Virus record (IMG/VR): IMGVR_UViG_2541047807_000012
Source of the DNA: a virus
Taxonomy: Duplodnaviria > Heunggongvirae > Uroviricota > Caudoviricetes
DNA: 43,752 bases
Strand: one strand, 5' to 3'
In this document: piece after piece, positions 18,698 to 20,813 of the stretch
Layout: every line of letters starts with the position of its first letter
Numbering within the stretch: position 1 is the first letter of the stretch
Program-made: the position numbers and the translations under genes
Notes under the pieces: model-generated
Databases searched by the model: none
Told to the model about the DNA's origin: nothing
Seen by the model: only the letters and a program-made list of their open reading frames with translations

Positions 18698-18913
18698 ATG
18701 ATGTCTAACAAAATGACTGGTTTAGTGAAATGGTTTAACCCTGAAAAAGGTTTTGGTTTCATCACGCCGAAAGATGGTAGCAAAGATGTGTTTGTCCATT
18801 TCTCAGTTATTCAGAGCAACGATTTCAAAACGTTAACTGAGAATCAGGAAGTCGAATTTGGTATTGAGAACGGACCTAAAGGCCCCGCGGCTGTTCATGT
18901 AGTGGCACTTTGA
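18698..18913 (+). CDS. cspI: Cold-shock protein CspI-like
   Basis: [35 protein letters not shown]...[13 protein letters not shown]. Confidence 0.9.
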
Positions 18914-19116
18914 GGTAGAAAATATTACAAACCATATTCACTTTAGATGCCCGTGTTGCCATGGTTCTCAGTATAGAACATCATCTTTTGATGTTTCTGA
19001 CAGGAATCCTTTCGGGGCAAAATGTATCTTTTGTAAATCAATGATGATTACATTTGATAATATTTCACAATACTTAAATGTTAGCCGTCTGTCGTTAGAT
19101 TTAAGAAAGTGAAAAT

Positions 19117-19139
19117 GAAGGCTCCTTCGGGAGCTTTTT
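19117..19139 (+). terminator. Intrinsic terminator
   Basis: Hairpin GGCTCCttcgGGAGCT followed by TTTTTTG. Confidence 0.65.
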
Positions 19140-19184
19140 TGCTTAGTGTCTAGTCGATGGATACTCACATATTACGGTAACATT

Positions 19185-19415
19185 ATGAAAAAAATAATAG
19201 TTTTTTTTAACTCTGAACCAGCAATGGTAGTGCCAGTGATGACCGGAGTTAACACCATCATGCGTGAATATCCAAATGGCGAAACAACACACCTCACTGT
19301 AATGGCTGCAGGGTTTCCATCTCTGACCGGAGATCATAAAGTCATTTATGTAGCAGCGGATCGACATGTAACTTCAGAAGAAATTCTGGAAGCAGCAATG
19401 AGACTCTTGAATTGA
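19185..19415 (+). CDS. Small hypothetical protein
   Basis: 76 aa from MKKIIVFF. No family recognised. Confidence 0.4.
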   Translation: MKKIIVFFNSEPAMVVPVMTGVNTIMREYPNGETTHLTVMAAGFPSLTGDHKVIYVAADRHVTSEEILEAAMRLLN

Positions 19416-19581
19416 TTTGATTCTAATGCATTGATAATAAATGATAATCATCTTTATCTGTTTGTGTGAAATTTAGACCGTCGTATGTTGATTATTGCGA
19501 TGTTTCATCTTATCTTTTATACGTTTGCTCCATATAATTGACACTACTGTGTACCAGGAAAGTCATAACAGACTAAAAGAG

Positions 19582-19761
19582 GAAATGATGAACATTGAAG
19601 AGTTAAAAACAAAAACAGAAGCAGATATTTCTGAATATATAACAAAAAAAATCATTGAGCTTAAGAAAAAGACCGGGAAAGAAGTTACCAGTATCCAGTT
19701 TACTGCACGGGAAAAAATGACTGGTCTTGAAAGCTATGATATCAAGATTGATTTAATCTAG
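19582..19761 (+). CDS. gnsB: GnsA/GnsB-family small protein
   Basis: MNIEELKTKTEADISEYITKKIIELKKKTGKEVTSIQFTAREKMTGLESYDIKIDLI resembles the recalled GnsA/GnsB sequence. Confidence 0.75.
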   Translation, partial: EMMNIEELKTKTEADISEYITKKIIELKKKTGKEVTSIQFTAREKMTGLESYDIKIDLI

Positions 19762-20056
19762 TATGTTTATAGTATTAGCATCAATTTCTCATCAGATGCT
19801 ATTCAACAATACAAATTACCCATAAACCTCGTTTTTACGGGGTTTTGTTATATTTAAACATTACCGAATAGATATAAATCTCGATTGTCGATGGTATTGG
19901 TTGTGTGACAATACCTAGTCTTTCCGGTATGCCTGAAGAGAATACAAACGACAGATTATGTAAGGGAAACGCGCTGAAACTTTCACTCTTTCATGCTGAG
20001 TGATTTGACGTTATATTTTTAGCCGCAAGTGAAGAGCAAACGCATGGAGCGACAAA

Positions 20057-20263
20057 ATGCATAAAGATCAATACACTGATGCCCCCTCCCAGGAGCAGGT
20101 TCGTGTAAAAACTATGCTTAATAGCACCATTTCGATGGGTTACCCGGATGTTGTAATTGCATGTATAGAACATCAAGTATCTCTGGAAGCATTCAGGGCA
20201 ATTGAGGCCGCGTTAGTAAAGCACGATAAGAATACGAAGGATTATTCCCTGGTGGTTGACTGA
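20057..20263 (+). CDS. Small hypothetical protein
   Basis: 68 aa ORF upstream of cos. No family recognised. Confidence 0.3.
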
Positions 20264-20619
20264 TCACCATAACTGCTAACCATTCTGACCATTTCACAAG
20301 TGACAGAGTCAATATCGTATTCTGTCACTGTCAGGCTAATACAGTACTGCAATTCAACTACAGCAATGCCTCGTATTTAGGTGAATTTACAATATCGTCC
20401 AGTTCGGATGCCGGCTGCATTTCTGAAGATAAGGCATTTCGGTTCGCGTATTTTCCCCTCATGCTCGTCAGTCCTGCGCGTAGTAAGAAACAGGACACTC
20501 ACACTAATTTGTGTGGGCATGCTGTGATGTCCTTCTGAATTATCCCCACGCCATTATGTAAAGCTCTGTTTCAGATGCTCGTCACGGTTGTCAGGCTGTC
20601 GGGTCCTCCCTGTGGGGGG

Positions 20620-20650
20620 CCCTGCCACGGGGCGGGAGCGTCGCGGAAAA
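20620..20650. other. Candidate cos site (cosN-like)
   Basis: CACGGGGCGGGAGCGTCGCGG resembles the recalled lambda cosN context (ACGGGGCGGCGACCTCGCGGG), about 170-190 bp upstream of the small terminase gene. Confidence 0.5.
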
Positions 20651-20813
20651 AGACTAGTTTTTGCATTTCCATGGCGGCGGCAGCATGTTTGGTAATTTAT
20701 TGATAATTAAAAGTTATTTCTCTTTTCACCTGTACAATATTTTTTTCTCCCTGTCATTAGACCAGTTTGCAATTAATTGAAATATATAAATAAACCTGAT
20801 TTTCACCTGCCAG

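Follow-up and report, generated by a model that had tools for sequence, protein, structure and literature searches.

The apparently start-less zinc-ribbon-like frame behind cspI is ynfQ, a catalogued gene with a probable AUU start

The cspI-ynfQ locus and its neighbourhood

The window, by which we mean the whole stretch of 43,752 nucleotides that was analysed, carries on its plus strand the cold shock gene cspI at 18701-18913, annotated as such in RefSeq and matched by NCBIfam CspG/CspA (E = 1e-36 to 1e-40), with its TGA stop at 18911-18913. Behind cspI lies an open frame which the original prediction had described as a CxxC...CxxC frame without ATG, GTG or TTG before the motif, and which is real according to its translation, the list of open reading frames and the Pfam match given below (PF23641, E = 6.3e-33). 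Translation of 18903-19112 (+) yields 69 residues, ...FRCPCCHGSQYR...GAKCIFCK..., opening after a TAG at 18900-18902 and ending at a TGA at 19110-19112, and no ATG, GTG or TTG occurs upstream of the CPCC motif anywhere in this frame. Because a canonical start is absent before CPCC, the program-made list contains just a 23-aa tail at 19041-19112, beginning at an internal ATG at 19041. The position assigned to the frame, between cspI (18701-18913) and a terminator-like hairpin (19120-19140), is also correct as judged from annotation and RNA folding.

The annotated coding sequence, ynfQ, occupies 18924-19112 (+) and encodes a YmcF-like cold-shock small protein of 62 aa, an assignment that draws on Pfam, on identity with the K-12 protein and on the codon-position entropy. 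In RefSeq the CDS is exactly 18924-19112 with an ATT start and 62 aa (WP_071528545.1), the gene being labelled ynfQ or ymcF and the product "cold shock small protein YmcF" or "cold-shock protein". The interval first proposed, 18930-19110, covered the right frame and was slightly short, since the annotated CDS starts six bases earlier. The RefSeq annotation was taken from NZ_CP027544.1, which is colinear with the window only over 11985-20669 (99.5%) and was used for that stretch alone. The Pfam family PF23641 (YmcF-like) matches with 113.2 bits, the gathering score being 27 (E = 6.3e-33), residues 1-61 aligning to profile positions 1-61 of 62, i.e. over the full length, and the motifs of this family, HFRCPCCHGSQYR and GAKCIFCK, which hold four Cys in two knuckles, are all present in the protein of the window. 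A 731-nt query around the frame had matches in 2,147 of the 5,426 complete genomes of E. coli, with an identity of at least 99% in 529 records. The frame is ynfQ, a paralogue of ymcF, and is a named, curated and already known gene. What appeared as a frame without a start is a catalogued gene with a rare one, and nothing new is decaying or emerging at this position. The name has been used in two ways: in VanOrsdel 2018 "ynfQ" designates another ORF, of 37 aa and situated between ydfJ and ydfK, and the ORF adjacent to cspI is called "ynfR" (PMC6001520). The current K-12 record settles this, b4724 ynfQ being the 62-aa gene and b4749 ynfR the 21-aa ORF after ynfQ.

Comparison with intact homologues bears out the reading frame, which is conserved in the Qin ynfQ of K-12 and in lambdoid phage genomes. 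In the Qin prophage of K-12, ynfQ (b4724) is found in the same order as in the window, namely the cspI stop, 10 nt, ATT, 62 codons, ynfR/terminator, ynfN and gnsB. The K-12 YnfQ is identical to the protein of the window at 59/62 residues (95%), with the start codon and the Shine-Dalgarno sequence in common. The differences between the window and K-12 are the substitutions M27R, A53V and K61R and one base of the spacer, A for C at -4; furthermore, the downstream ynfR is truncated in the window, and as a lambdoid element the host prophage is more complete than the cryptic Qin. The paralogous block of K-12 reads cspG-ymcF-ymcE-gnsA as compared with cspI-ynfQ-ynfN-gnsB. Its YmcF (b4723) resembles the YnfQ of the window in having an ATT 10 nt after the csp (cspG) stop and in sharing the Cys pattern, whereas the identity is 68%, the C-terminal tail is divergent, the csp stop is TAA and the Shine-Dalgarno sequence is AAGGT. 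The ymcF gene of K-12 lies at a chromosomal locus without an annotated prophage. Further downstream in the window, ynfN (19185-19415, +) is annotated with 76 aa (MKKIIVFF...), compared with 51 aa (MREYPNGE...) in K-12.

The Rfam cspA thermoregulator (RF01766) matches the cspI leader and coding region at 18554-18959 (+), with a score of 116.8 bits (gathering score 78; E = 2e-29). Beyond ynfQ, at 19120-19140 (+), lies a hairpin resembling an intrinsic terminator, GGCTCC-TTCG-GGAGC followed by TTTTTT, and the RNA fold of 19100-19150 has an energy of -14.8 kcal/mol with z = -2.3. A scan for the consensus terminator pattern reported the same stem on the minus strand only, the plus-strand hairpin being given by folding. 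Since the thermoregulator covers cspI and the next terminator-like hairpin is located 3' of ynfQ, we infer co-transcription of ynfQ with cspI as the simplest reading of this arrangement. In the literature ynfQ is described as "Qin prophage, cold shock induced" with a transcript that changes in step with that of cspI (PMC11228462), and ymcF and ynfQ are co-regulated with cspG, cspH and cspI in a published transcriptome (PMC11728337). A second Rfam match to the cspA thermoregulator was observed on cspB at 15088-15527 (+); a YmcF-like ORF follows cspI only.

The hairpin is overlapped by a truncated remnant of ynfR (19115-19153, +), which starts 2 nt after the ynfQ stop, extends through the hairpin and is marked in RefSeq as a pseudogene that is "too short". 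It has 12 codons, compared with 21 aa in K-12, where ynfR encodes a cold-shock-induced small protein of 21 aa (PMC6001520). The K-12 protein is MKAPSGAFLLGVYSMDTHILR, and the window encodes MKAPSGAFLLSV and then a stop, the shortening being due to a TAT-to-TAG change.

Start codon, coding constraint and Shine-Dalgarno element

The initiation codon of ynfQ is assigned to the ATT at 18924-18926 (+) by RefSeq, by the K-12 annotation of both ynfQ and ymcF, and by comparison of species. For this comparison 80 loci (75 distinct sequences), out of 277 found, from one-genome-per-species GTDB collections were aligned by their Cys motif. At the position of 18924-18926, 60 loci have ATT, 16 ATG and 4 ATC, with the first two bases invariant, and no codon other than ATN was found at this position among the 80 species loci. 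In-frame stops occur 4-16 codons upstream of the ynfQ start in many species, and a canonical start is absent from the whole open frame in 23 of the 80 loci and in the window itself. A second ATT in the N-terminus of the window protein, codon 5, corresponds to Ile or Leu across species, and is therefore not a conserved ATN. Initiation at the codon at 18924 is, on this comparative evidence, the only reading that fits all loci. The suggestion that the frame may use a non-canonical start has thus turned out to be right, the ATT being annotated by RefSeq/PGAP as well as by the curated K-12 record and the homologous codon being always ATN. In three loci of Atlantibacter the sequence at the start is ATT ATG. 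D'Lima et al., in 2017, reportedly detected YmcF and YnfQ by low-temperature proteomics and mapped their ATT starts by mutagenesis. This article (D'Lima et al. 2017, J Proteome Res 16:3722), which is cited elsewhere for AUU starts, is the primary report.

Comparable AUU-initiated genes are pcnB and infC, which has a conserved AUU or AUC in every species of bacterium (PMC5499595); ynfQ and ymcF likewise alternate between ATT and ATC, but differ from infC in having ATG in some genera and in starting 10 nt past the stop codon of another gene.

The variation within the frame is that of a coding sequence under constraint. For codons 2-45 the entropy at codon positions one, two and three is 0.36, 0.23 and 1.20 bits (75 distinct sequences), which indicates purifying selection on the ynfQ frame, and neither frameshifts nor internal stops were found in these codons at the ATT/ATC loci. 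For the 20 codons preceding the start, read in the same frame, the values are 1.12, 1.62 and 1.28 bits, a pattern that fits the csp frame instead.

An SD-like GAGGT at 18912-18916 (+), identified from the sequence and its conservation, overlaps the cspI stop and ends 7 nt before the ATT. The window thus reads TGAGGT at 18911-18916, with 10 nt from the cspI stop to the ATT. Across species the start is preceded at 9-11 nt by an AGG that consists of the last base of the csp stop plus GG (TAAGG or TGAGG), and the 5-mers seen over stop and GG are AAGGT, AAGGA, GAGGT, GAGGG, GAGGA and AAGGC. The bases homologous to 18913 and 18915 are invariant and the middle G at 18914 has 0.49 bits, compared with 1.1-2.0 bits for the neighbouring bases (75 sequences from 80 loci). 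Judged by conservation and position, the AGG represents a Shine-Dalgarno element at normal spacing.

Most loci with ATT or ATC share this junction: a stop codon plus GG is present 9-10 nt upstream in 56/64, and 53 of these were found to have an intact csp at that place. All 16 ATG loci (Klebsiella/Raoultella, C. sedlakii, Silvania) lack an intact adjacent csp, as opposed to its presence at 53/64 ATT/ATC loci, an association counted over 80 species loci which are not phylogenetically independent. Eight loci of the Pseudescherichia group retain ATT without csp, and in the more distant copy of Morganella phage IME1369_01 the homologous codon is an ATG that lies 9 nt behind a csp TAA, with the first Cys following eight codons later. 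Coupling to csp is therefore not obligatory. In Klebsiella/Raoultella the YmcF-like gene is solitary, starting at ATG behind an AGAGG or AAAGG SD of its own, and csp is 450-550 nt upstream or absent. Just upstream of the gene in these genera, …AATGTTGTAGCA… looks like a relic of a csp 3'-end.

Taken together, we consider it very probable that ynfQ is intact, has its AUU start at 18924, is carried on the cspI mRNA and encodes a two-knuckle product that is likely to bind one zinc. A different view, also raised in the original prediction, is that of a decayed gene which once was initiated at ATG, lost this start and now persists as an untranslated remnant. The absence of a canonical start from the open frame would agree with decay, as would the genuine truncation of the neighbouring ynfR in the strain of the window, and ATG at the homologous codon in 16/80 species means that the ATT could be a mutated ATG. 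Nevertheless, ATT or ATC is the majority state (64/80 species loci, in many genera and in both E. coli paralogues), the ATT/ATC loci are themselves under strong purifying selection, with 0.23-0.36 bits at positions 1-2 versus 1.2 at position 3, and the same allele is present in sequenced lambdoid phage genomes. Decay is thereby made extremely unlikely, and the idea of a decayed small gene was wrong for this locus, where 62 intact codons, 95% identical to K-12 YnfQ, belong to a gene under strong purifying selection across Enterobacteriaceae.

It has also been considered that the zinc-ribbon frame is made only as a C-terminal extension of CspI, by a +1 frameshift at CUU UGA G or by readthrough. 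The end of cspI, GCA CUU UGA GGU, invites this reading, as the ynfQ frame is the +1 frame, is open from 18903, and would be entered directly by a CUU-to-UUU slip. CTT TGA was, however, found at just 8 of the 57 junctions with stop plus GG, the others having CTC TAA, CGC TAA, GTA TAA and so on, and the frame relation is itself variable, the spacer being 9 nt, and thus in frame with the csp stop, in 8 loci and 10 nt in most. Many loci retain the gene without an upstream csp, 16 species have ATG at the equivalent codon, and the SD of the prfB type, 3 nt upstream of CUU, is absent in the window; all in all, a fusion to CspI appears very unlikely. That the conservation might instead reflect an RNA element, i.e. 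the cspI 3' UTR or terminator, or a gene on the opposite strand, is brought to mind by the Rfam cspA model, which reaches 18959, and by a 66-aa ORF with a GTG start at 18968-19168 (-) in the program-made listing. We give this a negligible probability: the three-base periodicity of the variation is tied to the frame on the plus strand, the residues that never vary are Cys, Pro and Gly of the motif, the match to the protein profile has E = 6e-33, and the overlap with the Rfam model comprises the first 12 codons only. Apart from these considerations, CUU UGA at the 3' end of cspI is the motif of the prfB +1 frameshift site, a similarity that is probably coincidental (8/57 junctions).

Motifs and predicted fold of YnfQ

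The first predicted metal knuckle, C9-P-C11-C12, is encoded at 18948-18959 (+), and the second, C34-I-F-C37, at 19023-19034 (+). In the first, C9, P10 and C12 are invariant and C11 is conserved to at least 90% (30 homologues; 75 sequences). In the second, C37 is invariant and C34 is conserved to at least 90% among the 30 homologues, and neither varies among the 75 distinct species sequences. The residues that are invariant in the 30 diverse homologues further include F7, G14, S15, Q16, R18, S20, D23, P29, G31, F36, K38 and M41, in addition to C9, P10, C12 and C37, while C11, H13, C34, H6 and others are near-invariant and the last ~15 C-terminal residues are variable.

The model obtained from AlphaFold2 with the homologue alignment has a mean pLDDT of 72, with ~87 for residues 11-40, which form short strands, and a disordered tail. 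When this model was compared with the PDB by Foldseek, the top neighbours were zinc ribbons (TFIIE-alpha, PolD, large-subunit ribosomal proteins and TFIIB), the best of them having E = 0.58, which is not significant. Sequence comparison with the PDB gave no significant relative of YnfQ, nothing falling below E 0.04. A 2026 review presents YnfQ as modelled with rubredoxin topology (PMC13348028). The predicted arrangement is like that in zinc-ribbon miniproteins and domains such as the TFIIE-alpha finger, the TFIIB ribbon, the ribosomal ribbons and rubredoxin-like knuckles, in which two knuckles of the CxxC type are ~21 residues apart and combined with short beta-strands; YnfQ differs from these in the additional conserved C11, H13 and H6 and in a GSQYR motif, and the structural matches are non-significant (Foldseek E = 0.58). 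From the model and the motifs, YnfQ is most likely a stand-alone zinc ribbon with one predicted zinc bound through C9/C12 and C34/C37. The description of the frame as zinc-ribbon-like was reasonable, its basis being the Cys pattern and a model of medium confidence. A plain Cys4 zinc site leaves the conserved C11, H13 and H6 unexplained.

A profile search of 1.84 billion representative proteins gave 42 matches, all but one marginal match being stand-alone proteins or fragments of 16-95 aa. As the matches are so few and almost all stand-alone, the YmcF-like family is narrow and offers no clue to its function from domain fusions or characterised members. In a separate homologue search the named matches were nearly all from Enterobacteriaceae.

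Two other relationships were considered. The stretch FRCPCCHGSQY (residues 7-17, 18942-18974) resembles box II of Rieske proteins (F-x-CPCHGSQY) over 12-15 residues with E = 0.046-1.3. Membership among the Rieske [2Fe-2S] proteins was rejected because box I (C-x-H-x-G-C) is absent from the 62 residues; in addition, the box II-like stretch carries an extra Cys. The window also encodes YnfU at 15828-15998 (-), a Cys-rich putative zinc-binding small protein in the same prophage (NF038384, E = 8e-23). A relationship of YnfQ to this protein was rejected as well, BLASTP of YnfQ against the YnfU of the window giving no alignment. Against NF047912, a different CxxC family, YnfQ scores 17.6 bits, below the cut-off of 37.

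The AUU start, cold shock and occurrence in phages

The probable mode of expression of such a gene can be outlined. The cspI and ynfQ genes would be carried together on the cold-inducible cspI mRNA, ending at the hairpin at 19120-19140, and ribosomes would begin at the AUU at 18924, 10 nt past the cspI stop, with the last bases of the stop plus GG (UGAGGU) serving as Shine-Dalgarno element. A weak AUU, discriminated against by IF3, may hold YnfQ low at 37 °C, as a small fraction of the abundant CspI. The AUU may then be relatively better used in the cold, or by ribosomes that have just terminated on csp. Guessing from the context, YnfQ might work beside the Csp proteins on RNA or other nucleic acid, or on the translation machinery, in the cold.

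In reporters, initiation at AUU amounts to 1-2% of that at AUG, and infC and pcnB were for long the sole confirmed AUU genes of E. coli (bioRxiv 10.1101/063800). IF3 discriminates against AUU, its fidelity function being reported as temperature-sensitive, and mRNAs with AUU are less competitive in vitro at low temperature (PMC5499595). Because such mRNAs compete poorly in the cold in vitro, the AUU itself is disfavoured as a cold-specific enhancer. A tentative and rather doubtful explanation for the maintenance of AUU is that most ribosomes translating ynfQ come straight from termination on the csp ORF 9-10 nt upstream, itself very highly translated, the csp stop codon supplying part of the SD; together with the temperature-sensitive discrimination of IF3 against AUU, this would make the output of ynfQ a fixed, cold-gated fraction of Csp. 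If this were true, lineages that lost csp (Klebsiella/Raoultella, Silvania) would have had to switch to ATG and an SD of their own. The distribution of adjacent csp genes (0/16 ATG versus 53/64 ATT/ATC loci) fits this reinitiation reading, with the Pseudescherichia group and a Morganella phage as exceptions.

Genes for YmcF and YnfQ are found within cold-shock operons, both in E. coli and in its phages. Seven Escherichia phage records, 2H10, mEp460_ev081, PhiR63_1, HannyBb and Tritos among them, contain the ynfQ ORF with 95-100% identity; the lysis genes and a csp gene precede it there, and ynfN-like and gnsB genes follow. The ORF is unannotated in 6/9 phage GenBank records with a match, which shows the ATT start defeating gene callers. 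ORF rules, like many annotation pipelines, systematically overlook genes initiated at ATT.

Morganella phage IME1369_01 has a 47-aa version of the YmcF-like protein. Public assemblies that bear the labels Veillonella parvula MAG, Mucilaginibacter MAG and Chryseobacterium sp. also contain ynfQ/ymcF loci resembling those of E. coli or Scandinavium, most likely through contamination or mis-binning. In another part of the window, the early/regulatory region of the prophage, Rfam identified isrK, an Hfq-binding sRNA, at 8701-8777 (+) and, adjacent to it, the C4 antisense RNA at 8802-8889 (+).
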